A stretch of DNA of 64,000 bases from Schmidtea polychroa. Taxonomy: Eukaryota. Of the stretch, positions 4,801 to 48,419 are shown piece after piece. The position numbers and the translations under genes are program-made. Below the pieces are notes generated by a model. The model did no database searches. It was not told where the DNA came from and was given only the letters and a program-made list of their open reading frames with translations. Location: NCBI GenBank assembly GCA_044892525.1, contig CM097886.1, positions 65,782,001 through 65,846,000 on the forward strand, in the 5' to 3' direction. How positions within the stretch are numbered: position 1 is the stretch's first letter; each line of letters begins with the position of its first letter.

Positions 4801-7800
4801 AAAGTACAAATAATAATAGTACAAACCTATAAATAATAAATTACAAGTCTTAATAGTACAAACCTATAAATAATAAATTACAAATATTAATAGTACAAAC
4901 CTATAAATAATAAATTACAAATATTAATAGTACAAACCTATAAATAATAAATTACAAATATTAATAGTACAAACCTATAAATAATAAATTACAAATATTA
5001 ATAGTACAAATCTATTAATAATAAAAGTACAAATAATAATAATACAAACCTAAAAATAATAAAAGTACAGTAACTACTCTCTTATCCGCCAAAAAACGGG
5101 ACTATGAAAAAGGTGGCGGGTTCTAGAAAATGGTGGCTTGTAGAGTAAAAATAAAAAAAATTATTAAAAAATTCATTTCTTTATTATCCAGTTATCCAAA
5201 ATTATATTTAATACAAAAATAGCAAAAATTAAAAACAAAAATAATTAAAAAAATATATTATTAAACCAAATTACACTTATTTAAATTCATTTGTGCAAAA
5301 ATAAATTGGCGGATAAGAGAGCAGAGTTACTGTACATGTATAAAATATTTTTCATAAAATGTTGTATAAGTCATTCTCCTTGTTGATGTTTAAATCAGTA
5401 AATCTTTAATAAAAGTATTTCACAATATTTATGTTAAATAAAATAAATAATGACTAGATATGAAAATTGAACGAATGGAAATTGTATAAAAATATTTTAA
5501 TAAATCTTTTAAAATCATTAAAAACTAATACCTGATTCTTCATTTAATTGATTGTCATAATTAGGATCTCTGTGAAGAAACTCCACAAAAGGAATAGGAA
5601 CATAAATAACATTGTCAGACAAGATAGAATAACAGCGTTGTAGGAAATGATAAGTTACATTAACGTTGACACCCAAAATTACAAGTCTAGAATCAGTGTT
5701 TCCAAGTAATTTGATGGCTTTATTGACAGAGGATGGAACTTTGAAAACGCATCCCGGTTCAAAGACCAAATGCAATTTGTAAGATTTAACTTTTTCGTGT
5801 TTTTTAGTAAAATTATCAACCATCGCATTTAATTTTTCATTTGATTTTCCCATAGAGCACACATATATTGTAACATTGACAGGCAGGAAATGGATAATAT
5901 TGCTTTCGTGATATTTCAATAGATATTCTATATGGGGGATATTTTGATCACTACATGTGTATAAAACATTTATTGTTCTAGCTTTTGTGACAGTAACGTC
6001 ATTCTGAGAGACAATTTGAGCATAACTAAATGGTTTGACAAGGTTTATCCGATATACTCGTTTGGGTGTATTTAATTTTCTATGCTTTTCTAAAACCAAT
6101 TCCAAATCCATTATGTACTCTTTGCCTCTAATGGGATCAATCCGTTCGAATCCGTTTAAAAGTGATTCAATTTTAAATCTGAAAAAAGTTAATAGTTGAT
6201 TTTTTTAAAAAAGGAAAATGTTAAGAATTAAAGATGAAGTAGATTTTTATCTAAGAACAAAACAGCGATGCAAAGTCAATATAACAAAAAATCAGGTTAG
6301 TCGGATAATCAAAGTATAAGAATGCCACAATAAGCCAATTGGCAAGAGTTCTTATTGGCTAGGAATTTAATACAATGTACGATAAAGGGAAGCATTGTAA
6401 AGGTAGTGATTATGATAAATTGAAATAAAAGTGAGGATGGAAATATCATGATAAAATATCAATTTACTGTTATATTTTTTATGTGAAAATCGAAAACCAA
6501 AACGAAGACAACAAAATAATCAATAAATCATATAGCCTGTCAGTTTAGTTTCACGGGTGTCTTAAAATAGACTGAGATGGTGATTCTTTAATGAATCCCG
6601 AAAACAATATACACTTTCTTGAAAGTGTGATATAATTTTTGAAATGTGAAATATTGATTATAATGTGCTGGTGCAAAGTGCAAATTCTGACTATAGTCAG
6701 AGACACGTCTTTCTTACTAAAGCAAGATCACTCAAAGTTCCAGGAATTCTTTTCACTATAAAAAGTGCAAATATTAATTTAAAAGTGCAAAATTGTGCTA
6801 AAAGAGGATACACTATTTGAAATAAATTTTGAAATATGAAATATTGATTTTTATAGTGGGAATTCAGATTATAGTCATAGGCACGTTTTTTTACTAAAGC
6901 CAGAGCAATCATAGTTCAAGGAATTCTTTTCACCATTAAAAAGTGCTAAAATTGATTTAAAAGTGCAAAATTGTGCTTAAAAGGTTTTTGAAGGTTTGAT
7001 ATAATTTTTTATATGTGAAATATTGATTTTTATGTGCAACTGCATAGTGGGAATTCGGACTATCATAGGCACGTACATTTACTAAAGCCTAAGCAATCTA
7101 AGTTCCAGGAATTCTTTTCACTATAAAAAAGTGCTAAAATTGATTTAAAAGTGCAAAATTATACTAAAGAGAATTTTTCGTGTTACGATTCATTGCACTA
7201 TAGGACGAGGGTTCAAGATTTTTGTTTCGGCAAAAAGATGGAGATTATGAAAATTTTGTGATATCTCCAAGAGAATTGTCTGGCGGAAAATTAAAATTTT
7301 TCAAGGAGAAGATTCTTAAAATGTATTTGTTCAAAATATATTGTCAATAAATCAGATAGCCTATCAGTTAAGGTTCATGGGTGTCATAAAATAGATTTTT
7401 TAACGAATCCCGAAAATAATACAAACTTTTCTGAAGGTTCAATAGGTAATATCAGAATTTGTAAGACATATTCCTTAGGTTTTTAGTGTGTTTTTGCCTA
7501 TTTGAAGCGATCTGTGCTTGAACAGAGGAACAACTATACTTTATATTGATTTTTTTTATTCTCATCCTTCCGTTTACTGATTACCAAACAAATTTGATAT
7601 GAGAACATGGTATTGATTACCACATAATTTGAAGTATCCACAATCATTTTTGAATACAGTTATAAGTGTAAGTTCACATCTGACACTCCAAAAAGAAAGA
7701 GTTCATATCACCTGCTACAATATTGATATTATACAATTGAATTCATTTCTATATTATATGGTTTTACATATTGAAATTGACACCTGTAAAATTTGGGAAA

Positions 7801-8948: not shown

Positions 8949-10638
8949 TGTTGGGCTAGAACCGAGAATTGAGAGTTCTTTTAATGAATCGGAAATACAT
9001 AACAAAAAAAATCGCACCAAGTTGAAATAAAATCCATGGTCATACACCAAATAATACAAAATAAAATACATAAAACAGTGAAGATAAATAAAACACGTAT
9101 AAAAATGAAGGAACGCAAGAAGCTGCAACCACCAACACGGTTCGGAGAAATATCACATTCGAAAAATCTAACAACTGGAGAATAAAATTATAATGAATAA
9201 AATAATCGGTAATAAATTAATTAATAATATGAAAATGTTTTAAATATATAAATTAAAAAATTAAAACTAAAATTCCAGTAAACTGATAAAATGATACAAC
9301 AGTAAAATATAGGTAGTAAAATTAGGTAAATTACAAATTTATAAAACCAAATTGTTTGAATCAATGAAACTAAAATAAAATTAATTAAACTTATTTTAAT
9401 TATAAAATTTATAAAACTAAATTTTTTAAATCAATAAAACTAAATTAGAACTAAAATTAGTTAAATTATAAAATTTATAAAACTAAAACGTAAAATTTAA
9501 TAAAAATTAAAAATTTTGATTAATTAAACTAATTTAATAAAAAATAAAGAATTACACACAATCATGCATGCATGCAAAAGTAATTCGAATTTATCGCATG
9601 CTAATTGGATACAGTAGCAGAGAATGCGTAGGCGTGTAATCAAATCAGTATATATACTGATTGAAAATTCAGTCAAAAACAAACTAGTTTAATCTGAAAT
9701 TAACATTATTTAGCAGACATTGTTAGGCGCTCTCAGTTTTCGGTGTATGCAATCGCCGTAAGTTGGATTTTATTTTGGAAATTTTATGGGAAATATAATT
9801 TTATATAAAGTATAATGTAATTTCATGATTTAATAAAATTTTAAGTTGAATTTAGTTTTAGTTAATTTTGGTGTTTTGCTCATTTCGTTTTTAAAACTTT
9901 GAATAAATATTTATGGTTGAATTTGGTTTTTGTCATAATTTTTATACTTTGATGCCCCCAGGTTTGGGATACGTCTGTAAACCATCGACCGATAGATTGA
10001 TGGACAGCATATGGTTAACCATTCTGGCACATTGTTTAGAGGGTATAATTAGGGAGAATATAGATAGGAGAATATAGATTCATTTTGAACAGTTTGAAGC
10101 TTTGTTTAAATATAGATAGTATAGGACGGGTTCGTTTTAGTAAGACATAGGTTGGAATTGGAAATACAGGCAGATCCCTGCTCAAATATTTTGAAGATTA
10201 AGTTGAATTTTCACCAGGACTGCAGAAAATATGGAATGACATTTATTAACTGGGAAATAAAATATCTACAAATATTACAGACAACACATAATAACTTATA
10301 AATAGAAAAATAAGGGCGGATCCCTGGGCAAAATTTTGGAAGATAACATTAGAAAACATCTAGTAGTGAGGACCACAATTAAATGAATACAGGACAACAA
10401 TCTAACAATAGAAAAGATAACGATTAATGACGTAAGACCTTCTATCGGCAGTCTAGAACCCGAAAAGAAAATACAATGAGGAGTAGTTTTAGCAGTAGAG
10501 CTCACCTGCTTATTGATTTTCAACCATTGTGTACAGTACCAACATGGTCGTCACCATGGGTACACAGATGGTAATAAAACAATAATTATGAAGGCGTTTA
10601 GGAAGGAGTCTATTCAACACACGCGTAAGCGACCAACA
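8949..10638 (+). mobile_element. Solo LTR (family 1, diverged subfamily), 1690 bp
   Basis: TGTTGGGCTAG...GACCAACA termini; TSD AAAT at 8945-48 and 10639-42; homologous along its length to the LTR at 23489-25032 (A-rich U3, ATTGG box, TATA palindrome, U5 hairpins, structured motif). Confidence 0.9.
10428..10572 (+). ncRNA. LTR U5 structured RNA motif 1, copy D
   Basis: ATGACGTAAGACCTTCTATCGGCAGTC followed by two stem-bulge-stem domains; base pairs covary with copies at 21601, 24780, 32657 and 45078. Confidence 0.6.
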
Positions 10639-14543: not shown

Positions 14544-15113
14544 TCATGATTTTTCTGTGACCTTCAGCGAATCTACTCTAAAACTTTCTTCCTTCTGCGC
14601 GAGGACCAGATCACCGATTCTGCTAAAATCCGCTTCTAATCGTTTCAGATCTGCCTCAATTTCCTTCGCTTCTTTCTCTCGTCCTAACTTCAGAGCATTA
14701 TTCTTCAGCTCCTCAAATTCGTTCATTACTTCCTCATACTTGTCTTCGTATGCCTCCATTCTCCTTTGTTCTTCCCCAGGGTCTGATCCATCTCCTAAAG
14801 CCCGGTTACGTAGACGCCCTAACGAAATCTTCCACCCTGTTCGTCTTTTGTAACCTGCCTCGAACTCAGCATCTGATACTGGACTTCCCCCTGCCAGACC
14901 CAAGACCAGATGTAACGTGGCTTCTTTCCTAACATTATAATCTAATAAAGTTAAGCCATCTTTTAATATTTTCCCCGCAAAATTAAGTTTTTGTCGACCT
15001 GGGGGTATCCCTTCTTTTTTATAAATCTTCGCTTTCACTTTTTCAATAGTATCGCTCGATTCAACTTCAATCGTGACAGTCTTCCCTGTCAACGTCCTTA
15101 CAAATATTTGCGC
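14544..15113 (-). CDS. Divergent ubiquitin-like domain fused to an acidic coiled-coil tail (start codon unresolved; may be a pseudogene)
   Basis: 15113-14886 encodes [30 protein letters not shown]...[10 protein letters not shown], 55/76 identical to ubiquitin by hand count. The frame continues ~113 aa ([26 protein letters not shown]...) to a stop at 14544. Confidence 0.7.
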
Positions 15114-16189
15114 CAATTTATTTTTAATAGGTTTAGGGAGGGCAGGCCCTAGGGGAAATGTTTCCTTAACCCATAAAAAATTGCATCCAAATAGAAAATT
15201 AACCCATTCAAAATTTAAAATTTCACAGAAATCGATATGAGTTAACATTACATTCTTTAACATTATGAAAAAATACAAAAGGTACATATAACAATTGTCA
15301 ATTACCTTGTTCCGGCTGGCTTGCCGGAACCACGCTCTGCTACCATGAATGAAATCAAGACACAGAATATAATTTTTATTGTCATATGATAATAAGACAA
15401 TTTTGTAAATTTAACAGTTCATGATGTTATGACTTTAATAATTTCGCCATCAGAATAGAATGGATATAATAATGGTTGCTAATAATAGGAAACTGAGATT
15501 GTAGATGGTTATAATTTGGGAATTACAATTATCGGTTTCATGAATTATTCCATTACTCTTTCGTAAATTACAGGTCAAAATTGCGATGATCATCAGTATA
15601 GGTAGATTATAAGCATGAGTAGCCATGGAAATCGTGAGGTCTTGTTTAGATTGTCTAAAATTGTAACTTTAATTTTATAACTGATATCTAGGTGGTGAAA
15701 TAGTGAGAGTTAAGGATATATATGTTGAGGTCCGTAAATTAAAATAAATTTAAATGAAATTTAGGTTGAAAATTTAAAAAAAAAGTAAGTGAAGAAAAAA
15801 GACAAATAAAAGATGGGTCATGTACAGAATTGATAGTAAAGGAAAGTACGATGGAAGCAGTATTAGTAAATGGCAAAAGCAGTAACGAAAGGCAAGAATC
15901 CGGAAATCCGAGAAAAATCAATAAATTGTAAAATCATCGAAATCGAATTGGGAAAAATGGACAAGTATAGATTAGTTAATGGTCAATAAGATGATGATTA
16001 GGGATTTATCAGAAAATGGTTAGGAAGGGTCGAAAAGCTTTCAAATGTGTAAAAACAGAAAACATTAATTAATTAATTAATTGGCTAATAGAAAACCCGA
16101 GCTAGTGGGAAACCCGAGCCAATGGAGAACCCGAGATATGAAGGAAACCCGAGCTGGGTAAACAAGAAGAAAGGTAAACAGAAGGAAGA

Positions 16190-16565
16190 GTTATAGGGGG
16201 TGATTTGAAAAATTTGAATTTATAATTTTTTGTAAGTAGTATATATAGGTAATATTAATATAAAACATCTATACCTAGGTGGTTCATGAAATCTAATTTA
16301 TAAATTTTATAAGTAGTATATACAAGTAATATTAATATACATATCTATACATAGGATGTTATAGGGGGTGATTTGTAAAATTATAATTTATAAATTCTAT
16401 AAGTAGTGTATATGAATAATATTAATATGAATATCTATATATAGGATGTTACAGGGGGGTAATTTGTAAAATTATAATTTATAAATTTTACAAGTAGTAT
16501 ATATGAATAATATTAGTATATGCAAAGAGAACATAAGGGGTGATCCATAAAATTTTTATTCGTAA

Positions 16566-21890: not shown

Positions 21891-24025
21891 AACCTTATAA
21901 AAATCACTTATAATTTTCATGAAGACCCCCTTACGATATAGCATAGCAAAATAACGTAACATGACTAATTCAAATCATATGTATAAATCTTTAACTTAAA
22001 AAATATAATTTGTAATTTCCCGAAATACCCCCCCCCCTCTTCAAATTATATACTTGCCAAAATACATGTAATAACACCAATTCAAGTTGTAGATTTAAAT
22101 ATGCATCTTATAGAAACCTAATTTATAATTTTCATAAATATCCCAGTTGTGAGAGAACTTCGACCGTAACTTCCACGGGCAAATCCATGATTGTCGCCCA
22201 CCATTCGAATTTACGGAACCAGTAAACTCATGGCCTTGCTAACACTTAAAATATCCTCGTAATGATAGCATGTAATTAGTTTATTAGTGAGAATCAAAAG
22301 ATAAACCATTTATTTTTTAATTAAAAAAAACATATTACCAGCCTCTGTATGCAATGGTAGAATGATTGTTAAACCCAACTAAATGATACAGAATAGAATA
22401 ACGAGATTGAATTAGAGCGACGGTAGCCAACTGAATAGGTCCAAACTTAAATATTGTCCGTCGAATAATTCTCTCGAATAGTTCTGAAATTTTTAAAACA
22501 AAGCCGGATTCGATAGTGCTAGATTACTATCCCCAACACCAAAGCAAGAAATTGGGGAAATCCGACTGAAGAATTACAACCACCAAGGGTCATGGAGTAC
22601 GGCCAAACATACGACCGAGATTTAATGTAACCCTTAAGATCATAAAATATCTAATTACCTCACTGAGTAATTATAATCCAAGATCGACCATTATGTTGCG
22701 AGTTAATATAAAGAACCTAAAGAGAAAATTAACCGAGGCCAGCTGAGGAATATTCCGGTAGAATCAGACTTGCCAGACGGGTAAGGCGAGAATCCATGTC
22801 GGATTACAACGACTTACCTATGACTGTAAGCCTGATTTACTCGGCTATAGGTAATCTAATAAATTTAATAAATCTAAATATAATAAATCTAATATGTAAC
22901 ATAAATAAATTTGAAACAATTATATTTATTTGTAATCCTGTTGCCATATATAAACACAGGTTAATATTTAATGAATTACCATAATTAATAAATGATTTTT
23001 TTTGGGTTTAATGAAATTCCGAATCTAAACAAGGTAAAAAAATTGAGAATATTTAAATAGAATACCTTTTTTTGTGGAGCATAGATTAAATTAGGAACCA
23101 TCGTTATCATCAGTTTTTAACTTGTATTTTATGTCATAGACAATTAGGTTTTCGTACGGGGACGCGTAGGAAGGTACATAAGTGTATAGTGATTATATAA
23201 GGGTATCAATAAAATTGTTTAATTTCGCGGGTTTGTTTGATGTTAGTCTGATGAGATGGTGAGAGAGTTTCTAGAATTTCGGAAAACAATTAAATTAAGG
23301 GACCAGAGCAAATCGGACACATATCTTCTATCGATAGTCCGTGAACTCAAGGAGTGCCCGATAATTATAATGCAAGTAGTGCGCTCACTTTTTGCGAGCA
23401 CTCACTCTCTTGATACAGTTCCAACGTTGATCACGCAACGGGTATCAAGCGGAGAAGCAAATGTTATTTGTATTCTGGGTTACGCTGGTGTTGGGCTGAA
23501 GCCGAGAACTGAGAGTTTGTTTTAATCGATCGAAAATACCTAACACAAAAACCGCAAAGTTGAAAAATTTATGACCAAGGTTTAATTTAAAATAAATGAA
23601 ATAAATTACATCACACATTAAGAACCAATAAACCCCGTATAATAGAATAAGAGATAAATAAATTTAACAAAAAATTCAACACTTAAAAATTTAAATAGAA
23701 AAATAATAAAATATAAAATAGAATTAGTTGAAAATTATTTAAACAATATAAAAATTAAATCGTCAAAAATAATAAAATTAGTTAGCATTATATAAATTGT
23801 AAAGTTTATAGAATTAAATGGTTATTTAACTTATTAAATTTAAAGAATAAAAATGTTTAAATTAATAAAAATTAATATAACTCCAATTATTTAAATTATA
23901 AAATTTATAAAATTAAAATTAATAAAAATTAAATAAGAAATTAATTAAATTTATTGAATTAAAACAAATAAACAATTGCACACACTCATGCAGGTATGCA
24001 AGACTAATTAAAAATTTCTCGCACT

Positions 24026-24077
24026 CTGATTGGATAGAGTGGCAGCAAATGCATGAAAAATCAGTATAAATACTGAT
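24026..24077 (+). promoter_or_regulatory. LTR promoter: inverted CCAAT (CTGATTGG) plus TATA inside a dyad ATCAGTAT-AA-ATACTGAT
   Basis: Similar ATTGG + TATA arrangement in LTRs at ~9604-9662, ~12636-12671, ~41756-41790 and ~31903-31954. Confidence 0.65.
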
Positions 24078-24779
24078 CACAAATTCATTTAAAACTACTT
24101 TTTCTCTAACATCAAAATTTAGTTGTAGACAGTGAAGCTCTCAGTTTTCGATTTTATGCCCATGTGGATTTGGTAATTTATTTTTTATTGTTGTAGTAAT
24201 TTTATGAGAAGATTAAATTTAATATGCAATAAAATTTTTAGTTAAATTTTCTTTTGTTATTTTCTTTTAATTGTTTAATTTCATTTAGTTGCAGATATTA
24301 AATAATAATTTTTATTGTGTTCAATTTTTATACTAACTGATTACGAACGTTAGTACCGCTGAATTGAGATTCAGCATATCATGGTTTGAGGTACCTTCGG
24401 GATGCTCAGACTGGTGGATATGCTGGTTTTCCAATCGCGCAGCTGGATTGGGCCGGAATGTGGGGGCTTCCTCACGGGTCCTATCGCTGGAAGTACTGTG
24501 GTCAAATGTAGGTTAGGACTGAGAATACAGGCAGATCCCTGCTCAAATTTTTTGAAGTATAACTTAAATATCATGGGAAGCGTGGATTAACTTGAAAATA
24601 AGGGCCAATCCCTGCTCAAATTTTTCAAAGGATAATTTAGATATTGTAGGAAGTGTAGAACAATAATTATTAGCTGGAAAATAAGGGCGGATCCCTGCAC
24701 AAAATTTTATAAGAGAACAATTAGAAATACCCGTAATTGAGGACCAACAACGATTCAAAAATAGCATACACAGTGAATA

Positions 24780-24925
24780 ATGACGTAAGACCTTCTATCG
24801 GCAGTCTACAACCCGAAAAGAAAATACAATGGGGAGTAGTTTTAGCAATAGAGCTCACCTGCTCATTGTTTTTTCGCCTTTGTGTACAGTACCAACATGG
24901 TCGTCGCCATGGGTACACAAATGGT
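24780..24925 (+). ncRNA. LTR U5 structured RNA motif 1, copy E (duplicate at 32657-32802)
   Basis: See findings: conserved ATGAC|GTAAG, GAGCTC palindromic loop, TGTGTAC/GTACACA and CATGG/CCATG stems. Confidence 0.6.
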
Positions 24926-25039
24926 TAAATTGCAATAGTCATGGAGGTGCTTAGGAAAGAGTCGAGTGAATATATATGATTACCCCTAATGCATTTAAAA
25001 ATTTAAAATGACACACCCCTAAGTAACCAACATGATTTT

Positions 25040-25057
25040 TGGGGGCTCAGCCGGGAT
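25040..25057 (+). promoter_or_regulatory. Primer-binding site complementary to tRNA-Pro
   Basis: TGGGGGCTCAGCCGGGAT versus the MLV tRNA-Pro PBS TGGGGGCTCGTCCGGGAT (16/18); 7 nt downstream of the LTR end. Confidence 0.85.
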
Positions 25058-26663
25058 TTCTATATTTCCATTTCTTTGATGGGAAAAAACCACAACCAAA
25101 TAATCATAATGAATTCGTAATAATAAAGTTCGAAAATTTATTGTTTCCGAAAAACCATGCTCAAGTAACAATAAATTGCACTCGGAAAACTTCCGACTTT
25201 AACAACAAAAACGAAAAATTGGGTAGATCGGAAAACTAGAATTTAAAATTTATAAAAATAAGTTAATCCAGAAATAAAATCAATTGGGGTCAAAAGAAAT
25301 TTTAAAATACAAATTATAGTATTAAAAAAAAAAATTAAATAGATTGACATAAAATTTAACTTAACTATAAAAATAGGAATTTAAAATAAAAATTAACTTA
25401 GATAAAATCACAAAAAGTAAATTATAAAAGAATCAAAAGCGAAATCAAAATACAAAAATTAAATTCGAAAAGATTTATTTAAAAACAAATAGGTAATATA
25501 TATCGAACTTACCTGCCAACGAAGTAATCCAAAATGAATCGAAATAACAGAAGCTAATAATAATTCTAAATTCCAAAACACTTGGTAAATTGAAATTGAA
25601 AATAGACAGATTATATTTAACTTATCTTACAACGAAAATAATCCGAAAATAAAATATGACAAATTTCAGAGGTTACCAAAATCTTGATCTCCCTCCGAGG
25701 TACATATTGACGATACTGTGGAGACCATAGAATGGATAGGAAAACTTTTGAACTCCGGTTTCTCGAATCGTTAAATTGATAACGGTTAAGAATACGAAGA
25801 ATTTGAAGTATTGAATAAATGGAGTATTGTCGACATCATAACTCGTAATTAGCAATATCTGCATATACAAAACAATCTGAAGAAATAATTCTGAATAAAT
25901 CTGAAAAATATATTATTTTATTTAGTGTTTCAAAGCTAAGGAAATTTAATACAAATTTAATACAAGGAAATCAAAGCTAAGGAAAATATACAAATACGGA
26001 AGCGGGATAAATTACAAAATTGAGGAGGGATGATTAATAAATAAACCATTGACGAATAGAAGGGTAACGAATAAAATGGATAAACAAATATTAACGAGTG
26101 ATGCGAGAGGGATCTGCCTGAGGAAATAGTGAGCATATTAACGAGAAACAAGGCAACCGAAGCGGTAAGAGTAAAAGCGATAGCAATAAGACGTTAACTA
26201 GACAAGAGACGTGGATATATTTAGAATAATGAAAAAGGACCAAGAGTAATCGAGATAAGTAGATTAAGAGCATGACGTAAAAATGAGAATAAAGTATTAC
26301 GAAAATTGAGAGCAAATGAATAAGGAAATTTTTCTGTTAGGATTTAGGACATCCACAACCTATGAGCTACGCTCAGCGTAGTACGGATAAGACCAGGAAA
26401 GTACCAACTGTCCTGACGAAAGATGTGGAACAGGGCCCATCGCATATACTGGAACATCTCTGCGTGTGACTGATCACCACACGATCGGAGATCGACCAGT
26501 GCGAGTGTTTCACATCCAGAGTCAGGAGAGTGGGGAAAACCTGGAAGAGTAGTAAAAAGAAGCATGCAGGAGAAATAAAAAAGAGACCAAGTAAATGGGA
26601 AAGGACAGAGCGGAGTAAAGGGAAACAATTAGAGCTTAAAGACTCAATTCATAAGATAACCGG

Positions 26664-27191
26664 TAGACGAATAATAGATGCGAATAATAGATGCGAATAA
26701 TAGATGCGAATAATAGATGCGAATAATAGATGCGAATAATAGATGCGAATAATAGATGCGAATAATAGATGCGAATAATAGATGCGAATAATAGATGCGA
26801 ATAATAGATGCGAATAATAGATGCGAATAATAGATGCGAATAATAGATGCGAATAATAGATGCGAATAATAGATGCGAATAATAGATGCGAATAATAGAT
26901 GCGAATAATAGATGCGAATAATCGATGCGAATAATAGATGCGAATAATAGATGCGAATAATAGATGCGAATAATAGATGCGAATAATAGATGCTAATAAT
27001 AGATGCGAATAATAGATGCGAATAATAGATGCGAATAATAGATGCGAATAATAGATGCGAATAATCGATGCGAATAATAGATGCGAATAATAGATGCGAA
27101 TAATAGATGCGAATAATAGATGCGAATAATAGATGCGAATAATAGATGCGAATAATAGATGCAAATAATAGATGCGAATAAGAGATGCGAA
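26664..27191 (+). repeat. 13-bp tandem array (AATAGATGCGAAT)n, about 40 copies, in the element leader
   Basis: Near-perfect units with rare variants (AATCGATG, GCTAAT, GCAAAT). Confidence 0.95.
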
Positions 27192-27774
27192 TATAAATGA
27201 GAATAATGGCTACGAATAGGAACGGAAATAACAGACGTGAATACAGATGAGAAGGTAAAAGGAAAGATAAACGAGAATATAGATGAGTACCTAGAAAGAA
27301 ACATAGACGGGAATATAAATGAGAATACAGCCGAAGTCATTGACAGATATATAACTGAAAATAAATAAGATCGTGAAGGAAAAAGACGAAAAACGAATTG
27401 AAAATAGACAACCGTGTAGGAGAATAGATGAGAATATAGAATGGATAATGGAGAATCGAGTTAAGAATAATTTGAGGACCAATGTGTAAACAAAAATAAC
27501 GACGAAATGAATATTAAGATATGCCGGTACCCAAAGAAACCAAAGTAAAAATATTGCAATTACACTATATAATATATATATTATAATTTATAAATATAAT
27601 AAACGATAGGGAGAAGTGATATTTTTCTATTCAGGTAAATCAATCAATCAAGTCAATAGCCAAGTATCAGCAATCAAATAGAAGTTATTGTCAAATAATT
27701 AAGCCAAGTTCAGAAATATTGAACCAATAACAAAGCATACCAGATCAAAACAGCTAATAATAGAACCAAGTTTA

Positions 27775-30336
27775 TTGAAAGAAGAAGAATTAAAAGTTGC
27801 AAAGAAAGGAAGACGAACTATTAAACCCACGCAAGCACAAGAAATCAAAAAGCAAAATCAAAAAGACATCTCAAAGACCAAAAGTCGATCCATAAAAGGA
27901 AGCAGTGAAAAGGATTTCGAAAACAATAGGCCAAGAAGCGTAATACGCGTATCAGAACCTCAGGAAGGAAAAACTCTATCTGAAAACAGAAATAATAAAA
28001 GTGACATAAACCTAATAAAAGAAAAGACAAACGGAAAAAGAATACAATTAGAGATGGTAGATACAGCAGCCCAAATGGAAGCGATCAACAAGAGACTCAG
28101 TGAAATGGAGATATTCAATTTTCAAGGAAAATACAATGGCGAAAAATTCGATGGAAAACCGAACAAACTATCAAACTTCATCCAACATTTTGAATCTTAT
28201 TGCGATGCTCTAAAATGGACACCCGAAATGATAGTGAGAAGACTCCCACTATATCTAGCAGACGACGCGTTTAATTGGTACGTCGGAATAAAAGAGTGTA
28301 CAACCCCACTAAAAACCTGGAAAGAAATTAAGGAAGCTCTGATAAAAACATTTGGAGAAGCAAAAGATGCGCAATACAAATTTCTAGAATTCTTCAATCG
28401 AGGACAAGCAGTGAATGAATCATATATACTTTACGCAAGCGCACTAAGACGTCTAGCCAAACCGCTGTTCAGTGAAAAGGATATGGAAACACAACTAGTA
28501 ACCCAATTTGTAAAAGGATTGCGACGAGATGACATTAAAGGTGTAGTCGGATGCAAAATCTGCAAGACGCTGGACAAGGCAGTAGAGGCAGCGAATGTAT
28601 GTGAAATGTACAACAAAGTAACACAACCGCCAACTAGGAGGCCTATCGCAGATAATCAACCCCAACACCACAGACATTGGAGTCATAACAACAATAATCA
28701 AAGAAACGAAAATGACAACAAAAGCAAGAGGTTGAATAATAGAAACATTGGAAAATTTTGTGATGACTGCAAGAGACAAGGACACTGGCTCGATGAATGT
28801 CATGGGCAAAGAAGATGTTGGAATTGCGGTAAGAAAGGACATACCGCAGTAAGATGTGGAGTATCCAAAAAATGTTTCTCGTGCGGACAAGGAGACCATC
28901 TAGCAGTTGCATGTACGAATAAAAGAAACCAACAATGGAGTGACAATAGGGATACGTCAGCAAAGCAACTAGCTGAAATACAAAATCAAATAACAATTCT
29001 CACAGGACTGTGCAGTAACATGATCGATTATCAGTTTCAAGCGGAAGGAAAACAACAATCAGGAATAAATGTATTACAATGTGTGGGAGGCACATTACAA
29101 ATTCAAAATATCCGAACAAAACAACAACGAGAATGGAATACCTTACAGATCGCGGAAGCACGAGAAGCGGAAGAAAGATGGAGTAAACGAAAAGAACCTC
29201 AGGCAAGAAGAGAAGAAAAATATTGGAGAACGAGAAAGGAAGAACTTTTAAAAATGGATATAATGAGACTAACCACCAACGACAACCAGAAGGAAAAGAT
29301 AGAAAGAATGTGGGAAAGAGAACAAAAAAGAGTAATACAAATCAATATGATGAGAATGATAACGAGCAACGAAATAGATTTACAAAAAATTCCGGACTCA
29401 AGGATCGAAAGCGAAATAATTGAAAAACTGGAACAGGTAATATTAGACCATCAAAACATCAAACCATTTGAGGACAATCAGAGAGATTATACCGGCATCG
29501 ATAGTCAGGTTGGAATTGTAGTAATCCCGGAAAAGCGCGAATCGGAGAATGGCGAAAATCACGAAAAACGAAATAATGAAAAAACGCAAGAAAAGTACCA
29601 TGACATAAACACGTTAAAAACTGAAAGCGAGTGCGAACCAGATATCGAATGGGACGCAAGTACAAACAATTACGGGAACGAATACCAACCACAAGGACAT
29701 AATGAGCGCTATCGGTTCTTCGATAAGACGCATGGGAATTGTCAGAAAAATGAGCACGGAAAAAATAAATGTCGCCGCATAAAAAGGTGTTACGAATGTA
29801 AAAGAACTGGACATTTGGTCAATAACTGTCCGAATGGGACCAATCCAGTGAGAGATCAGTCACGAGAATACGCCACAGAACAAAACAATAAAAACTATGT
29901 CGAAAACAGAATTTGTCAGCCAGGGATACGAAAACATCAATCTCCAATGTTAATAAAACAACAGTCGACAAATGTACAGAGACGGACAAATGACGTGAAG
30001 GAACAGGTGAAACCCAACGCATACGAGGAATTGAGGAGACAATGTGTGGAACAGTGCAGGTTAATAATGGAACTGGTTGTAAAAGAAACGAGACAGGATG
30101 AATTGATAATGATATGGAGAAAAGTTGCAGAAAATAAAACAAGAGAAAATGAGGTACTTAAGACAACGATACTCCGACTAAAAGAAGAAGCAAGGTCAGC
30201 CGAATTAAGAATCAATGAAATAACGAGTAATCGAAAAAAATGCAAAGATGGGGCAGAAGAGACACAAATGGTGACGGCCAAGGAAAAGAAGAAGGGTAGT
30301 CCAAAGGATGTGGCGGAAATTAAAGAGGAAGTGTAG
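27775..30336 (+). CDS. gag: Gag-like protein: capsid-like domain, three tandem CCHC knuckles, coiled-coil tail and a fourth CCHC
   Basis: KFDG...FIQHFESYCDALKW...LPLYLADDAFNWY capsid region; CDDCKRQGHWLDEC, CWNCGKKGHTAVRC, CFSCGQGDHLAVAC and distal CYECKRTGHLVNNC. Frame is open from 27703; first ATG at 28054. Confidence 0.9.
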   Translation: MKEEELKVAKKGRRTIKPTQAQEIKKQNQKDISKTKSRSIKGSSEKDFENNRPRSVIRVSEPQEGKTLSENRNNKSDINLIKEKTNGKRIQLEMVDTAAQMEAINKRLSEMEIFNFQGKYNGEKFDGKPNKLSNFIQHFESYCDALKWTPEMIVRRLPLYLADDAFNWYVGIKECTTPLKTWKEIKEALIKTFGEAKDAQYKFLEFFNRGQAVNESYILYASALRRLAKPLFSEKDMETQLVTQFVKGLRRDDIKGVVGCKICKTLDKAVEAANVCEMYNKVTQPPTRRPIADNQPQHHRHWSHNNNNQRNENDNKSKRLNNRNIGKFCDDCKRQGHWLDECHGQRRCWNCGKKGHTAVRCGVSKKCFSCGQGDHLAVACTNKRNQQWSDNRDTSAKQLAEIQNQITILTGLCSNMIDYQFQAEGKQQSGINVLQCVGGTLQIQNIRTKQQREWNTLQIAEAREAEERWSKRKEPQARREEKYWRTRKEELLKMDIMRLTTNDNQKEKIERMWEREQKRVIQINMMRMITSNEIDLQKIPDSRIESEIIEKLEQVILDHQNIKPFEDNQRDYTGIDSQVGIVVIPEKRESENGENHEKRNNEKTQEKYHDINTLKTESECEPDIEWDASTNNYGNEYQPQGHNERYRFFDKTHGNCQKNEHGKNKCRRIKRCYECKRTGHLVNNCPNGTNPVRDQSREYATEQNNKNYVENRICQPGIRKHQSPMLIKQQSTNVQRRTNDVKEQVKPNAYEELRRQCVEQCRLIMELVVKETRQDELIMIWRKVAENKTRENEVLKTTILRLKEEARSAELRINEITSNRKKCKDGAEETQMVTAKEKKKGSPKDVAEIKEEV

Positions 30337-31365
30337 ATGAAAATAGTAAAAAGGAAGTGAACATATGTAAAAATTGATGTATAAATAGCAAATTAAATGT
30401 ACTAGATGTATAGGTATAAATTGATGTATAATGTGGCAAAAGATCGATGTATAAATAGAAATGGATCAAGTAACAGTTGGAAAAATACTAAATTTGAACC
30501 CTTACAATGGTAAAGGAGAACAGAGGCTCAAATGAGAAGAAAGAATATAAATCCAGAAGAAAGATAAAAGTGCAAACCCAGAAAGAATGAGTTAAACGAA
30601 TATCGAAAAGTAATATCTAATTTGGAACCCAAAACTAAGGAGAACGGTAAAAGATCCTGATAAATGAGACGAAAGTCACAGCCCCAGTGACATTGGAAAG
30701 TTAGTCAAATAAAGCTAACTAAGACCCAGATCGAAGATAATTTGAGTTACCCATTGGAGAAAGAAAATCCCTTAATAAGAGCAATACCGTAAACAAAAAC
30801 CACCGAGAAAAACCAAAAGAAAAATCTATGTGTCAAATCACCCAGTTAAACAAAAGTCCCGAAGACCCTGGAGCAAGGTCGGTCAACTACCATCAAATGA
30901 TCCAGAAAACCGGAATCCCAGCCTAAAAATTCAAAGAGAATCCGGGAAAACAGTCAAACCCCGATAGGAAGAATCCTATGATCTTCGGTAAGTATTACGA
31001 GCTAATTATGAAAATCAACAACAGGAGTCAAACATGCCTACAAAACCGAGCCGAAAGATCAAAAACCGAGCCCAGAACCGAGGGAAACAACCAACTGATG
31101 AATTTATCCAGAAATAAAACTTTTGCATATGACTCGTACTTGAGTTTGGACACTGTATCAGTATGTATATGTATTATGACCAGTCACTGTATGTGGCAAC
31201 TGCTTGAATTTGAGCTTAGACCTTTTTCTGCTAATTGAATTCTAACATGTCTTAAGCTATTATAGTATGTTTATAGGTTAATGGGAATGTAATAGACTAT
31301 GACCTGGGAAATTCATATGTCTAACAGAATTGCGGGACGCAATTTTAACGGGTCCCGGAGTGATT

Positions 31366-32909
31366 TGTTGGGCTGAAGCCGAGAACTGAGAGTTTGTTTT
31401 AATCGATCGAAAATACCTAACACAAAAACCGCAAAGTTGAAAAATTTATGACCAAGGTTTAATTTAAAATAAATGAAATAAATTACATCACACATTAAGA
31501 ACCAATAAACCCCGTATAATAGAATAAGAGATAAATAAATTTAACAAAAAATTCAACACTTAAAAATTTAAATAGAAAAATAATAAAATATAAAATAGAA
31601 TTAGTTGAAAATTATTTAAACAATATAAAAATTAAATCGTCAAAAATAATAAAATTAGTTAGCATTATATAAATTGTAAAGTTTATAGAATTAAATGGTT
31701 ATTTAACTTATTAAATTTAAAGAATAAAAATGTTTAAATTAATAAAAATTAATATAACTCCAATTATTTAAATTATAAAATTTATAAAATTAAAATTAAT
31801 AAAAATTAAATAAGAAATTAATTAAATTTATTGAATTAAAACAAATAAACAATTGCACACACTCATGCAGGTATGCAAGACTAATTAAAAATTTCTCGCA
31901 CTCTGATTGGATAGAGTGGCAGCAAATGCATGAAAAATCAGTATAAATACTGATCACAAATTCATTTAAAACTACTTTTTCTCTAACATCAAAATTTAGT
32001 TGTAGACAGTGAAGCTCTCAGTTTTCGATTTTATGCCCATGTGGATTTGGTAATTTATTTTTTATTGTTGTAGTAATTTTATGAGAAGATTAAATTTAAT
32101 ATGCAATAAAATTTTTAGTTAAATTTTCTTTTGTTATTTTCTTTTAATTGTTTAATTTCATTTAGTTGCAGATATTAAATAATAATTTTTATTGTGTTCA
32201 ATTTTTATACTAACTGATTACGAACGTTAGTACCGCTGAATTGAGATTCAGCATATCATGGTTTGAGGTACCTTCGGGATGCTCAGACTGGTGGATATGC
32301 TGGTTTTCCAATCGCGCAGCTGGATTGGGCCGGAATGTGGGGGCTTCCTCACGGGTCCTATCGCTGGAAGTACTGTGGTCAAATGTAGGTTAGGACTGAG
32401 AATACAGGCAGATCCCTGCTCAAATTTTTTGAAGTATAACTTAAATATCATGGGAAGCGTGGATTAACTTGAAAATAAGGGCCAATCCCTGCTCAAATTT
32501 TTCAAAGGATAATTTAGATATTGTAGGAAGTGTAGAACAATAATTATTAGCTGGAAAATAAGGGCGGATCCCTGCACAAAATTTTATAAGAGAACAATTA
32601 GAAATACCCGTAATTGAGGACCAACAACGATTCAAAAATAGCATACACAGTGAATAATGACGTAAGACCTTCTATCGGCAGTCTACAACCCGAAAAGAAA
32701 ATACAATGGGGAGTAGTTTTAGCAATAGAGCTCACCTGCTCATTGTTTTTTCGCCTTTGTGTACAGTACCAACATGGTCGTCGCCATGGGTACACAAATG
32801 GTTAAATTGCAATAGTCATGGAGGTGCTTAGGAAAGAGTCGAGTGAATATATATGATTACCCCTAATGCATTTAAAAATTTAAAATGACACACCCCTAAG
32901 TAACCAACA
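31366..32909 (+). repeat. 3' LTR
   Basis: Copy of 23489-25032, followed by TSD CTGG. Confidence 0.95.
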
Positions 32910-33569
32910 CTGGAAACAGCACGAAAGGGTAAAATGTATGTCTAATAGTTTGTTTAATAGAATTTTAAACTTCATATGGTTATTTTGAGTCTATAACTTC
33001 CACGAAGCTCTCATTTTAGAATGGATTTAGAACAGATACTTTACCTTGAAAATTAGCGGTTGACTCAGAATAGAGACTCAAAATCGTAGAGCTGATGAAG
33101 CATGATTAGGGTCAAGGTTAAGAATAATTGATTCTTATAGATCAAGTTTTTATATTCAGGGCTATCTGTTTCAAGTGCCAATTTGAAAGGAAAATAAAGC
33201 AGTACCGAAAATTTGTGTTAAATAGATAAAAATTTATTTATTTTATTTAATTATAATGAAGATAAACGCATTTTTTAATTAAACAAAGGAATTTAAAATA
33301 ATATATTTTTTACTGATTTATTTCTAAAGTTAAAACTTTTCTTTGTAAATTATAAAATAAAATCAATATCATGAAAAAGAATTTATTTAAGTACAATAGA
33401 TCTGAATTAACTCCGTATAATTATTTTGCCACATGTATTTAAATTTCTTTGTTTAAGTTATTTGACCAAGGCTTCCTATTTTAATTTTGACGAAATTTTT
33501 AGAGTAAAATTATTTATTTTCTTTTTTATTTAAGTAATATATCAAATAACAGTATTATTTACTTTTAAT

Positions 33570-36500
33570 ATGGATGTGTGTATTACAACATTAAAAATTC
33601 TTATTATTGGAGAAAGTAATGTTGGAAAGTCAAGTTTATTAATAAGATTTGTGGATGATACTTTTGATCCTGAAATTCCAGCCACTATTGGTAAATTTTT
33701 AAACATTATATTTATGATATTTATAAACAGGTGTGGATTTTCGAGTTAAAGCTTTGACAGTTGATGGTAATAAAGCTAAATTAGCAATTTGGGTGAGTAC
33801 AATTATTTCCTGGATAAGAACTATTTTTAACATAAGAATTATTGAAAATCATGTGAAATAATACTGATTTCATAGTTTTCTCTATTGTAACTTATTATTT
33901 CATCATTTGGCATCCGTCGATTATTGATTATTGTCAGTAAAATGTGAGCTCAGAAAATAAATCAGACTTAGGTTACTTAGTCTTTTATTAAATGAAATAA
34001 TATATTCATAAAAATGATGTTTAAAAATTCAATTCAAATTCAGCATATAGTTGTATTAAATTCCAAATAATAACATGAAAAGAACATCTATTTAATCACA
34101 CTATAAACTCATTTTTAATTTTATAAAACTTGAACTTAATTCAATTTTAAGGATACGGCAGGTCAAGAAAGATTCAGAACATTAACTCCTAGTTATTATC
34201 GAGGTGCTCAGGGGGTAATATTAGGTAATTTTCGAAGCAAGTATATGAAATTCATTTATAAATAATAAGTTTATGATGTCGCGAATCGAGAAACGTTTGC
34301 AAAACTTGAAAATTGGCTAAATGAATTAGACACATTTGCAACGGAAAGAAACTTGATCAAAATGTTAGTAGCTAATAAAATCGATAAGGTAATTAATATT
34401 TACAATCATATTTTAATATTTCCAAGTAATCCAAATTTTTCATTGGTTGACCATTTTTTACTTAAACAAAACATTCAAATCTGTTTTTTTATTTCAAATC
34501 TTTTATCTTTTAAATAGATTATTATATATATTATATTTTTTTTACACATAATATGGAAACGCAAGTTTGAATCATCTAATGGAACTAGGAGAACAAGAAA
34601 ATATATGATTAAAAAATGCTTAAACTGATAAAAGACATGTGAAATGAATTGGATTCTGATTTAAAAGAGAGTAATAGTAATGAAAATTTCTGCCTCTGTA
34701 ATATTTAATGAAATTGGGAATGTGGAATTGGTCAGTTTCTTTAAAATATATGGCCACGAAAAGTTTATTGACAAGAAAACGACTAAAAGCGGTACATAGT
34801 GATGGGTGAAACTGAGCCCGATTTCCCGATAAGCCTCCCACACCTTCATCCTAATCTCAGTGAATTGAGAGAGAAATATTAGTCCAATTGGTATAATCTC
34901 CACAGAAAGGATACTTCACCACAAGATTTAAACTGTTCCGTTTAATACTATAATTTTTATAGCATTTTCACAAGAATATTAAAATTTAAAATTATTTACT
35001 AGTGGGTAAAAGGTAATAGTGGATAATGTTAAATTCTATAAGCCCTTAACTGGTTCTGCACAACTACTTAGGAGCCACTTATAAATGACGTTATACCTCC
35101 ACTCAAATATTACCCCACAAAGCTCTGCACCTCCCAACCCTCCTCCCCCAATTAAAACGATTAGAATCTTAATTATAATAGTGAGCGTAACAAAATGTAA
35201 ATAATCAACAATTAAGAAAGAAATACTTGTGGTGACAATTACCGGTATTAAATTGAGTATAAATGTAATGCCATATGATGTCACATTTCTAAAACATCCC
35301 CTCACTATAGTCTACAACTTAACCCAATCCAGGTGGTATTTACTGCCTTAAAAATAAGTATCACGAGATAAGGCTTCTTGTACGAAATTCTGATGATATT
35401 ATCAATTATATTGAGTGGGCAATCCGAGGAATGAATAATGGAAATAGCGTATGTTTTGGAAATTATTATCATAATATGAAAAGTTTCTTGGATTTAGCGT
35501 TCGCTGACGGAGATTTCAATAGAATTTAAATTACGGAGTATTTATTGTTTTCTTATAAAATTATCAAATAATGATCTATGTTTAATTGTTTATGAATTCT
35601 TTATAATTATACAGTGTTATATTAAATCACAAAGGGGCTATCGCAATAGTTTGCTATAAGTTCATGTTTCTAATAAATATAACTTCCGATGTAACAAACC
35701 AAATTCTTAAATTTTCATTTGGAATTTGTTAAAATTAGTAATAAAAAACTATTTTCGAATATTTTCTTCATGTTTCCAAATTAATACGTTGATATCAAAA
35801 GCAGTAGATAGTCAATGAAAATCGCTTCTGATTGGCTATTTGGTAATGGAATAGAGATTTGAATGTCGCGAAATTTAGTGGACCAATAAGGGGAAGCATT
35901 TGAAATTTTGGAAATAATTGTGCTAATCTAATAGACTTTCTTTGTGGAGAATAAGTTTTCTTTGCCATCTTTTGAGATTTTACTCGGATTGGAAGCTTTT
36001 CTTTATAGCTAGCAATGGTGAGACAAAGTTGCAATTTCTGAAATCTTATCATTCGAACTTTTTATTTTTAGCTTTAATTTATAGTTATTTTAAAATATGA
36101 TGGTGACAAATAATATTCGTTAAAAGAATCTTCTAAACATTTATATTTAACTGGAAGTGTCACTGGTTTTTCAATGAACTTTTTAAAGTTTTCTTCAATT
36201 GAAAATGTTTCGTTTATTGATAAATTAAAATTTACCACCATATAAGATTTATATAGATTTCAATTGGACTGTCTAACAAATCACCGCACTCACCCAAATT
36301 AAACACATATCAGTGCTCATACTTTAATGTAAGTGGTAATTTATAATAAATCTCGTGATTGAAAATTTCTGGAGAAACGTGCTCTTTTACCGACTGTATA
36401 ATAAACGTTATTGAGCTTCTTGTTACAGCTATTCAACCACCTGTCACTAGTATAGAAATAAGAAATATTAAGTTTCCTACAAACTGTTGGTCTTTTCTTT

Positions 36501-39500
36501 AAATAGGTTACTCCAATGTACTTCATCGCTTTTCCGATTTCTTTTCAATCTTTACATTGTATTTCCTTTCGTTTAATTGTTAAACTTTAACACATTCATA
36601 ATTTTTTCTATTGCAAACAATTCCTGGAATTATTGATTTTGAAACTTTGAAATGTGCGCCAATTTGGTCGTAGCTCATATTCTTGCTAAAATGGTTAGTT
36701 TATCTTCGAAGGAAATAGCTGTTCTTTGTAAATTAGTGGTAATAACTCTTAAGGGAAAAACAACTAAAAATTATGGCTTGTATAAACGCTTCTAAGTCCC
36801 GGGTTATATACGTGATGTGATTGACCCATTAGTTGAATTCCAGTTTTTCGTCAGCTTTGTTGGCAAATTCACTCGCTTAGTTTCACAAAAAGTGATTGCA
36901 TTATTAAAATTAAAAGTTTAACTTTTTACAGAAATTGTATTTTTCTATTAAAAACTGAAAATTGGTAAAAGTGAGTTTGTATCGAATTTGGCAATTATTT
37001 CGTTTACGCGTTGCGACATACCGCTGGGTTTGATCAAATGAGTTTCAGTTTTTGTAATCTCTGTTTATGATATTTCTTTTCCAATGACGTCGTTGAAATT
37101 ATATAGAAATAGATAAATAGTTGACTCTTCGTCCCTATTCTTATGTTCGACTATCAATTTGCACTTCAGAACTGCCGCGATCTCTCTTCTAAAATTTCTA
37201 CTTACTTCAACCTGTACAAGCATAGTTCACCATGTTTTGGGTCTCTACATACTCTTGATGCTTGCTATGTTGAGAGATTATGTCGTTTAACTAAATATGC
37301 ACTGAGCTGGTACTGTGATATTTTTTTAACATTTTCAACTACCTCATTTTGACAATCAGACTCATGTTGACTTATGGTTTCCATATCCTCGTACAGTTTA
37401 ATGTCAGAATTGGCAAACATTCCTGGAACGATACTGCACTAAGTTTTTACTAGGAGTAATTGAGTGGTAGACATATATGCATGCTTTCCGGTAGTATATT
37501 CGACGGTCATTTGCAATTTAGTCTGCTTCCTATAAAACACTTTGCTTTCCAAATTCCATCGAACACCGAATATTCTTTTGAGATCTTTCATAAAACTTTC
37601 AATTGTTTTCTTATGAAAGATAGACAAATACCTAAATGTGTACAAAATGATATAAAATAAAGGAAAGTTAAGCCGACGACTGTTTGTATTTCAAAAATTA
37701 AAATCTTATATTTGCTCTATTAGTAGTATAAAGAGCAGTTTCGAAATGGCCTTAATAAATAACGCAAAGGAAATAAAAAAAAGAATTTAAAGGAGAAATC
37801 AAAAAACTTAAGTTTCCGAATAAGTATCACTATCTTTTCAATGAGAACATTTAGATTAATTAAATGTTTTTGTGTTTATGGATATTTAACGCAATTAAGA
37901 AAAATAATCTAGGATAACAGAGAAGTTTCTAAAGAAGAGGGTTTGAAATTCGCAAAAAAACACTCAATGTTGTTTATTGAGGCAAGTGCTCGCACAAACG
38001 AAGGAGTTAAATGTGCCTTTGAAGAGTTAGTTGAAAAAGTATGTTTTATCATAAAGTGAAGTGAAACGCATTTTTAATAATAATTAAACAAATTTTATTA
38101 ATTTTTCTTTAAAAAACTATTGTTAAAGATTTAAAATCTATAAAAAAATTGCGATTTAAAATTATTTAATTCGATACATAAATAACAACAATTTCTAATA
38201 AAAACTATTTAAAAACATTCACAACAAAAGTGTTCATATCATTTTGCACCTTACTTTTCGGATTCATTGATTTTATCAACAAAGCATCATAATTACACGT
38301 TCCCAATAATTTATTGACCAAATTTGTTTATTTTGCTCACTAATAAGTTCACGAGCTTAGGAAATTCATCCAACGCATGTGACATTACACTCATTACATG
38401 TAAATTGATTAACGAGATCAGAACGCAATCCAATCGGATGTTTAGACTTATTGATAAACATATTGTGCGCTTTACATGAATTAGACATAATCTTATAATT
38501 TAGATTTCCCAATTGCTTGCTTATCTTTCTCCTATAATCTGTTAAACCTTTCAAGTGCACCAATACTTATATAAATTTAAGATCATAATCGAACTTACAC
38601 CAAAACATTCTCAATCATTACCGAATTTTTTGTAAATTAAAACAATATATTTGGGGTACAAATAAGATTTGATTTTTATTTTTTGCTACATGACACAGCG
38701 GTCTTCAAATGGTTACTTAAGTAAATAAGATAGTATAGATTATATATTGTACTTTTATATTGTTAAAATGTCCGAAAAATGTGTTGATAATTTTGTTATA
38801 TTTTCGGCCTTATAAATTTAAGCCAATTTCGATTTGTGTAAAATTATCGTTAGTTTACACTTAGAAAATTTTATTTTTATTGATTAATTATTTTTTTCAT
38901 TCGAGCTATATATTATCTGTTGAACAACTTTCATATCTTGGGATTCTTTTTCAAATTAATATTTAAACGACCAATCGTACCTTATGGGACCAAATCGTTA
39001 ATACGCCAAACTAATTCTTTTTTAATACGGTAGATATGTTCCTGAGAAAAACACATGAAAAAGGTCACGGGTTACATTGTATAGATGGTATAAAAATGTA
39101 TAAACGTTCCATAATATTCGAAAAGTTCATAATATCAAATTTTTATTTTAAGTGGAAAATTTTAACCTTCTAATAATAATAGTACTTTACTACTTTACAA
39201 ATGCTTTTTGGAATATTCAAAGAATTTACTTATCAATGAGGGCCTTGGGGCCGATATTTGGAAACATTTACCGTAAAGTTTCATTGTGATCGAATGAATG
39301 GTTTAGTAATGCATAAAGTACAAGCAGACATACTTATAAACCTCACGAATATTGACTTAAAATGAGAGAATAATAATGAGCATTGGTGTTGTGCATTTTG
39401 TAAGAAATATAAATAAAAACTATTAACAACAGGGATCCCCGTAAAAACCACATAAATGTACTCGTAATCATTGTTTTAATACAGTGCTTCTAAAACTTCT

Positions 39501-43555: not shown

Positions 43556-43706
43556 NNNNNNNNNNNNNNNNNNNNNNNNNNNNNNNNNNNNNNNNNNNNN
43601 NNNNNNNNNNNNNNNNNNNNNNNNNNNNNNNNNNNNNNNNNNNNNNNNNNNNNNNNNNNNNNNNNNNNNNNNNNNNNNNNNNNNNNNNNNNNNNNNNNNN
43701 NNNNNN
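43556..43706. other. Assembly gap, followed by an (AAC/AAT)-type low-complexity tract to ~43860
   Basis: Run of N. Confidence 1.
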
Positions 43707-47820: not shown

Positions 47821-48030
47821 TTGAATTTATTAAAAAGAGAGCTTGAAGACTGACTGTAAATCAATCATCATTTTATACTAAACAAATTATATGAAATAAA
47901 TTTATTTTTCCCCAACAATAATTGGTAAAATCAAATTCACTTGAAAAAGCAGTGTCGAAAATTCATGAGTATCAAAAAACATCGATATATTACTGATTTA
48001 TAGTCTTCAAGCTCTCTTTAATAAATTCAA
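47821..48030. mobile_element. Foldback MITE, copy 1
   Basis: TTGAATTTATTAAAAAGAGAGCTTGAAGACT / AGTCTTCAAGCTCTCTTTAATAAATTCAA inverted ends; same family as 58988 and 61845. Confidence 0.7.
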
Positions 48031-48419
48031 TGGAAAAAATAATCAGTGGTGAAATTGGAAAAAAGTTCTTATAATATATATATATATATATATATATAAT
48101 TTTACTAGTTTTTTATTGTAAACGAAAATTCCATCATAATAAAGCAAAGTAAAATATTTTTGATTATCGATTTGCTTCATTTTTTTCGGAATTTCTCAAA
48201 TAACTCGCGCGCGAATAGACGGTAGTATCCTTCATGTTCGTCATTAATTACGAGAAAAATGCAGCTACATGGGAAACAAAATTGATCAATTGTAGTTAAG
48301 GGAGATGATCCAAATTCCTGTGGCCTGGATATCAACAATTTGTTTATTAGATTTTTAAACATGTTAGTCATTTAAAAAATATATAGGAATGAATATGTTA
48401 AATTAAAAATATTTTTTAA

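Follow-up and report, generated by a model that had tools for sequence, protein, structure and literature searches.

A very young pol-less Ty3/gypsy-type element with an intact gag in the planarian Schmidtea polychroa

Long terminal repeat (LTR) elements that keep gag and lack pol are known from plants and mammals. Plant elements called TR-GAG are defined as gag-only LTR elements of <4 kb, with at least two copies per genome (Chaparro et al. 2015, PMC4350172). In the accounts cited here, the mammalian ERVL-MaLR elements (MLT1, MST, and THE1) are non-autonomous LTR elements that lack pol and env and keep gag-related sequence, and a THE1D copy has an open reading frame (ORF) of 464 amino acids (aa) (PMC11359688, PMC4724089). 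The planarian element Burro (GYPSM1) is outlined as >30 kb long, with an ORF1 of about 4,900-5,100 aa that opens with Gag (three CCHC knuckles) and goes on to long cargo, env, and protease, the cargo being related to apoptosis and ubiquitin (PMC6431247). Ty1/Ty3 elements with internal deletions are reported to be mobile if given proteins in trans (PMC4974528). Here we describe an LTR element on the plus strand at 23489-32909 (9,421 bp) of a 64,000-nucleotide stretch of Schmidtea polychroa DNA (assembly GCA_044892525.1, contig CM097886.1, positions 65,782,001 to 65,846,000). This whole stretch is called the window, and all positions refer to it. The element has identical LTRs, an intact gag, and no pol. 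A preliminary description of the same DNA placed gag-only elements mainly in plants. This overstated the novelty, since pol-less gag-bearing LTR elements (MaLR) are known in animals.

On balance, we lean toward the view that the very recently inserted element belongs to a non-autonomous Ty3/gypsy (Metaviridae-type) family without pol, with a Gag that falls among those of long-polyprotein elements resembling Burro. Its parts are as follows.

23485..23488, plus strand: left target-site duplication (TSD), CTGG; direct comparison of flanks
23489..25032, plus strand: 5' LTR, 1544 bp; alignment, with putative promoter and R/U5 roles
24820..24926, plus strand: two adjacent stem-loops in the putative U5; fold z -2.85, helices recovered in a second analysis
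25040..25057, plus strand: primer-binding site (PBS), 7 nucleotides (nt) past the 5' LTR; 17-mer match at 25040-25056, complement ending in CCA
25058..27702, plus strand: long leader, broken by stops in all frames, with coding-like patches that are A-rich and decayed; frame reading
26668..27218, plus strand: tandem array of a 13-bp unit in 42.5 copies, 35/42 units identical; repeat analysis
27703..28053, plus strand: 117 open codons ahead of the first ATG; open in 0.4% of 2000 simulations
28054..30336, plus strand: gag ORF, 760 aa; start Met at a clade-conserved position
28108-28623, plus strand: capsid (CA); weak sequence match to dArc, predicted fold
28759-28914 and 29788-29829, plus strand: CCHC knuckles, three and one; motif reading
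30019-30255, plus strand: C-terminal coiled coil; sequence and model
30337..31365, plus strand: 3' internal region without pol remnant, closing in a hairpin that extends into the LTR start
31366..32909, plus strand: 3' LTR, same sequence as the 5' LTR; alignment
32910..32913, plus strand: right TSD, CTGG; direct comparison of flanks

Alignment of the LTRs gives 0 differences over 1544/1544 bases, in agreement with the apparent identity first noticed, and sets their divergence at <=0.19% (95% upper bound, from zero differences). Both end in TGTTGG...CCAACA, and the TSD described earlier as clean is a perfect 4-bp repeat. Identical LTRs and a perfect TSD imply recent reverse transcription and integration. 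Pol must therefore have come from elsewhere, unless it was lost afterwards. Within the 5' LTR, an A/T-rich U3 contains a reverse CCAAT-like box at about 24029 and TATA at 24065. AATAAA at 24228 probably marks the end of R, and a long U5 with 73-nt repeats (24520-24728) follows. The U5 stem-loops gave no match in an Rfam search; they are also kept in an older solo LTR of the window (fold z -3.18; two sequences compared) and are a candidate packaging or dimerisation signal. The PBS, likewise part of the first description, is the sole match to its 17-mer in the whole window at <=3 mismatches (0.04 expected; at least one match in 3/100 shuffles). We take it to be of the tRNA-Pro type. No tRNA gene is found in the window. 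Direct LTRs with TG..CA ends, the TSD, and the tRNA-type PBS are all hallmarks of Ty3/gypsy elements. To judge from its Gag, the element belongs to the Ty3/gypsy lineage as a derivative and not as an autonomous member, as it has no pol (PR-RT-RH-IN) for a reverse transcriptase (RT) phylogeny.

The sole long ORF (27703-30336) has 877 codons from stop to stop, in keeping with the uninterrupted gag of at least 853 codons seen earlier, and 760 from the first ATG. Its length is beyond chance: the longest ORF in 2000 Markov simulations has 252 codons. Each segment of the ORF, the last 270 codons among them, has 0 stops in the gag frame and 8-23 in the two alternative frames. The leader and the 3' internal region have stops in all frames; selection thus appears confined to Gag. 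Pfam finds only zinc knuckles in the protein, in which four CCHC motifs can be read. The capsid region matches dArc weakly in sequence (E about 1e-3). For the predicted capsid structure, the top Foldseek match is dArc1 (E 2e-4), and the C-terminal domains of human and rat Arc and the capsids of Ty3 and PEG10 are matched as well. In a viral structure library, Gag proteins rank first for the Gag model. The AlphaFold model has a mean pLDDT (per-residue confidence) of 49.9 and only its capsid and last helices are reliable; beyond the capsid it is mostly coil and helix and matches no enzyme fold (low confidence). A helical segment follows the nucleocapsid (NC) knuckles (post-NC segment). The ORF product is a Ty3/gypsy Gag with four CCHC knuckles and, by prediction, a capsid of the Arc/Ty3-type fold.

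No part of pol is found in the element. Pfam pol families match 0/24 of its frame translations (stops read as X), a scan that covered the element other than the tandem array and the minus strand of 27200-30300. With the whole window searched in six frames (phmmer --max), 0/11 pol and cargo protein queries match inside the element. The claimed lack of protease, RT, RNase H, and integrase is thus borne out. As a positive control, 5/11 of these queries recover a decayed gypsy pol at 48.5-50.5 kb. This relic (48400-50800, minus strand) has RT at 50464-49940 and RNase H at 48720-48475, split by a repeat at 48747-49789. It was considered as a helper and is ruled out, being broken and interrupted by another repeat. 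A protease hidden in the ORF is also rejected: neither D[TS]G nor YxDD occurs in it, and a protease-region query has no match. No pol fragment lies on either side of any supposed deletion in the element. Of the earlier proposal of a non-autonomous element that supplies its own Gag and borrows Pol, one part is well supported for this copy, namely that it is very young, pol-less, and Gag-encoding and needs Pol in trans. The TR-GAG label does not fit, as the element is 9.4 kb and the definition is for plant elements of <4 kb.

A phmmer search against 1.84 billion representative proteins gave 786 matches to the Gag at E<=0.001, of which 12 reach E<=1e-30. Among these 12, P0003 is a knuckle repeat only; the remaining closest relatives are unnamed gene models without contigs. 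Relatives match Retrotrans_gag. In Group 1 (P0002, P0004, and P0151), the knuckles are 47-57% identical to those of the element, and the post-NC segment is 43-44% identical over 173-195 aa. P0004 and P0151 stop about 10 aa past this segment, without protease. Group 2 (12 proteins) has the capsid in common with the element, 11/12 at 42-45% identity. Including the P0005/P0152 and P0001/P0153 families, it is sister to the element's capsid (SH-aLRT branch support 95) in a quick tree of 80/111 capsid matches, those spanning >=130 aa, from 153 proteins. Group 2 proteins carry further parts: a protease in P0153, an integrase zinc domain in P0008, a RING finger in P0011, and an extension of about 800 aa in P0152. 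Since gene models of the clade carry the protease and the integrase zinc domain, candidate helper types exist. The ubiquitin-like region of P0020 is weakly matched (E 0.006) by P0152, for which ESM Atlas gives no usable match. P0020, another Gag match, has a ubiquitin-like domain and a GGW motif, presumably Bcl-2-like. P0095, also a Gag match, carries a viral fusion glycoprotein; the cargo of both is unusual. When a word-index protein search was used, the full Gag found nothing among 7,998 candidates scored, and P0004 was the only match of the Gag profile. Scans of metagenome and viral contigs gave no matches.

Some of these proteins share a cleavage-like motif, [IV][NHA][VM][LM][QRKA], a pattern chosen after viewing the data. 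The element's Gag has two copies of it (0.02 expected in shuffles); the slash marks the putative cut.

29065..29079, plus strand: candidate protease site 1, INV/LQ; kept in P0002
29341..29355, plus strand: candidate protease site 2, INM/MR; kept in P0002

In the 15 nearest proteins (9,788 aa), near-duplicates included, the motif is counted 23 times; in the 138 other matches (61,022 aa), it is counted once. In P0153, a cut after the Met of a motif near the protease N-terminus would place the catalytic Asp at protease residue 25. Residue 25 is the position of the catalytic Asp in retroviral proteases. On this motif evidence, the element's Gag can likely still be processed by a protease of its clade, and the sites are likely meant for a borrowed enzyme.

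Between the putative transcription start and the gag ATG there are 89 ATGs, the 13-bp array, and an acceptor-like site at 27634; Gag therefore probably needs splicing or internal initiation. The open codons ahead of the ATG carry HTRS, a form of the motif [HYN]TR[SA] that lies 5' of the capsid in 8/12 clade relatives, and they possibly encode a non-AUG or spliced N-terminal extension of Gag.

If the element belongs to a pol-less family, its cycle may be pictured as follows. The LTR promoter would give an RNA of about 8 kb, and Gag would be translated, probably after splicing or by internal initiation. By way of the knuckles and the U5 stem-loops, Gag may bind the element's own RNA, and it may co-assemble with the Gag-Pol that an autonomous, TGTTGG-ended relative makes. 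The helper protease would cut Gag at the two retained I-N-[VM]/[LM] sites. Helper RT, tRNA-primed at the PBS, and helper integrase would then produce an insertion with a 4-bp TSD. Keeping Gag may give the element priority in packaging while the enzymes are borrowed.

Several points weigh against a pol-less family. Only one full copy is seen in the window. The last 270 aa of Gag have no relative past the knuckle, and ESM Atlas gives only sub-0.9 leads for this tail. Over the final ~600 nt ahead of the 3' LTR, where a polypurine tract (PPT) is expected to lie, no purine run >=11 is found; a hairpin takes its place. No long Gag-Pol polyprotein of the clade is found among longer proteins in a word-index search (4,243 candidates), which is a weak search. 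The relatives' gene models may be mis-spliced and have no DNA context, and the capsid grouping comes from a quick tree only. As for the cleavage motif, its pattern was fitted to data already seen and its clade counts are not independent. It is not matched in P0004, P0151, P0005, and P0006, it is absent between CA and NC of the element's own Gag, and a truncated stump would carry identical motifs.

Such a stump is what the strongest rival explanation proposes. An autonomous, possibly giant Burro-like element would have lost everything from mid-ORF1 to the 3' untranslated region (UTR) in its last reverse transcription or soon after insertion, and the ORF would be the remainder of a polyprotein up to the first stop. 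We hold this to be unlikely, although it carries real weight. A single copy is seen, the cleavage-like motifs are equally expected in a stump, and the nearest relative, P0152, runs about 800 aa past the common post-NC segment. As described for Burro, the ORF1 protease lies thousands of residues after Gag (PMC6431247), so that one deletion into the 3' UTR leaves no trace of pol. However, the Gag tail after aa 610 matches no relative's extension past the knuckle, and the sister proteins P0004 and P0151 likewise end soon past the post-NC segment. Stops, moreover, fall in all three frames of the 3' internal region, where neither cargo nor pol is matched.

An assembly effect is improbable. In this case the LTR identity would come from collapse or polishing, or, in a real insertion, the space between the flanks would have been filled with the internal region of another copy. 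The window is indeed scaffolded, with two runs of N (43556-43706, 151 bases; 52906-53077, 172 bases), and 1.5-kb repeats are prone to homogenisation. Yet the TSD is perfect, the flanks are unique in the window, the ORF is clean, and the 13-bp array is resolved with variant units. In addition, sequencing runs of a second study contain at least 0.60 of the query words. The query is 61% element and 39% flank (even word sampling assumed), and because the word share exceeds the 0.39 of the flank, element sequence is present in more than one study, a result with no bearing on how the copy is built. Least probable of all is a two-component system, in which the element would supply Gag to a partner that has pol without gag, each depending on the other (the reverse of barley BARE-2) or would hide a highly diverged enzyme that was missed: strong selection on Gag alone fits it and gag-less BARE-2 is a precedent for such complementation (PMC4350172), but no partner is seen, the pol-bearing clade relatives P0153 and P0008 have their own Gag, and the Gag model shows no enzyme fold beyond the capsid (low confidence).

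The lineage has an older history in the window.

8949..10638, plus strand: older solo LTR (1690 bp, ends TGTTGG...CCAACA) from a sister subfamily; flanked on each side by an AAAT TSD, block identity 70-84%

This diverged LTR with its own 4-bp TSD indicates that the lineage inserted earlier. The region abounds in debris of the lineage. TGTTGG(G)-ended LTR-like relics of other subfamilies are found at 12285, 19240, and 41449 (plus strand), at 54434-55433 with an inverted ~85% copy at 48747-49789, and at 22538 and 10839 (CCCAACA ends). Those at 12285 and 41449 have a 135-bp block in common (71%). A short ORF at 349-741 (minus strand) with weak Gag_p24_C/PNMA matches (E 0.04-0.06) is possibly another gag fragment.

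The host genes in the window (chondroitin synthase, SDR, and a spliced Rab) have a eukaryotic, animal-like look. The spliced Rab-family gene (33570-38040, plus strand; Ras/Roc matches), which we take to be Rab18-like, has its ATG about 660 bp 3' of the 3' LTR on the same strand. The 3' LTR could therefore affect its expression. Tandem arrays with periods of 37, 188, and 90 (4360-5069, 6619-7175, and 16294-16520) lie in or near the chondroitin synthase-like gene region. At 14547-15410 (minus strand), beside LTR-like relics, a ubiquitin-like domain precedes a coiled-coil tail; this could be cargo of a mobile element or a pseudogene. Decayed actin-like sequence at 55500-55940 (minus strand), read by eye, is a possible processed pseudogene. 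A palindromic family of ~210 bp resembling miniature inverted-repeat transposable elements has at least 3 copies (58990-59204, 61845-62098, and 47927-48122).

Returning to the pol-less family, a more speculative extension, to be taken as tentative, is that the element is a long-lived satellite of giant env-bearing Burro-type planarian elements. It would make its own processable Gag that retains the cleavage code of the helper, maybe in a non-AUG N-extended form, build mixed capsids with the polyprotein of the giant, and use non-purine plus-strand priming. It may ride in helper particles and interfere with them, as a natural defective-interfering partner. If only a single deletion copy is at hand, the case is ordinary. 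If there is a family, invertebrates offer in it a clean case, active at present, of an LTR element that supplies Gag and borrows Pol. One could then test directly why Gag is kept (packaging advantage or helper interference) and whether the giant retroelements dominating planarian genomes are kept in check by small satellites. Such a family could also stand as a model for the intermediate stage from mobile Gag to domesticated capsids like that of Arc. Specific testable predictions follow from the conserved candidate cleavage code and from the absence of a PPT.

Among known systems, TR-GAG elements as defined in the cited work resemble the present element in having LTRs, PBS, TSD, a lone gag ORF without pol, signs of recent activity, and mobilisation in trans. 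They differ in size and host (<4 kb in plants, 9.4 kb in an animal-type genome), and the element has a 760-877-aa Gag with a long extension, a 2.6-kb leader with an array, and no clear PPT. With MaLR it shares being an animal LTR element that keeps gag without pol, a likeness in lifestyle only. MaLR elements, as described, are old, mammalian, and of class III endogenous retrovirus origin, whereas this element is Ty3/gypsy-type, invertebrate, and very young, with a capsid predicted to be Arc/Ty3-type. That predicted capsid fold is also the likeness to Arc/dArc and Ty3. Arc genes are domesticated and have no LTRs; unlike Arc, this Gag stands within an intact mobile element. CM-gag of Culex, going by its title, reportedly "contains only a gag gene". 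Literature searches, which exclude subscription papers, Repbase, and supplements, found no report of a gag-only planarian element. A gag-only variant apparently related to giant flatworm elements seems undescribed, while its lifestyle is known from plants and mammals. In common with Burro, which is compared here by its published description only, the element has an N-terminal Gag with three CCHC knuckles, a long in-frame extension, and tandem repeats, and the layout of its relatives, with protease, integrase, and RING pieces, resembles Burro ORF1. Unlike Burro, it is 9.4 kb long with 877 codons and is without env, protease, and apoptosis/ubiquitin domains. The element itself is not a Burro element; a possible descent of its Gag from the Burro clade is a lead drawn from the layout of those relatives.

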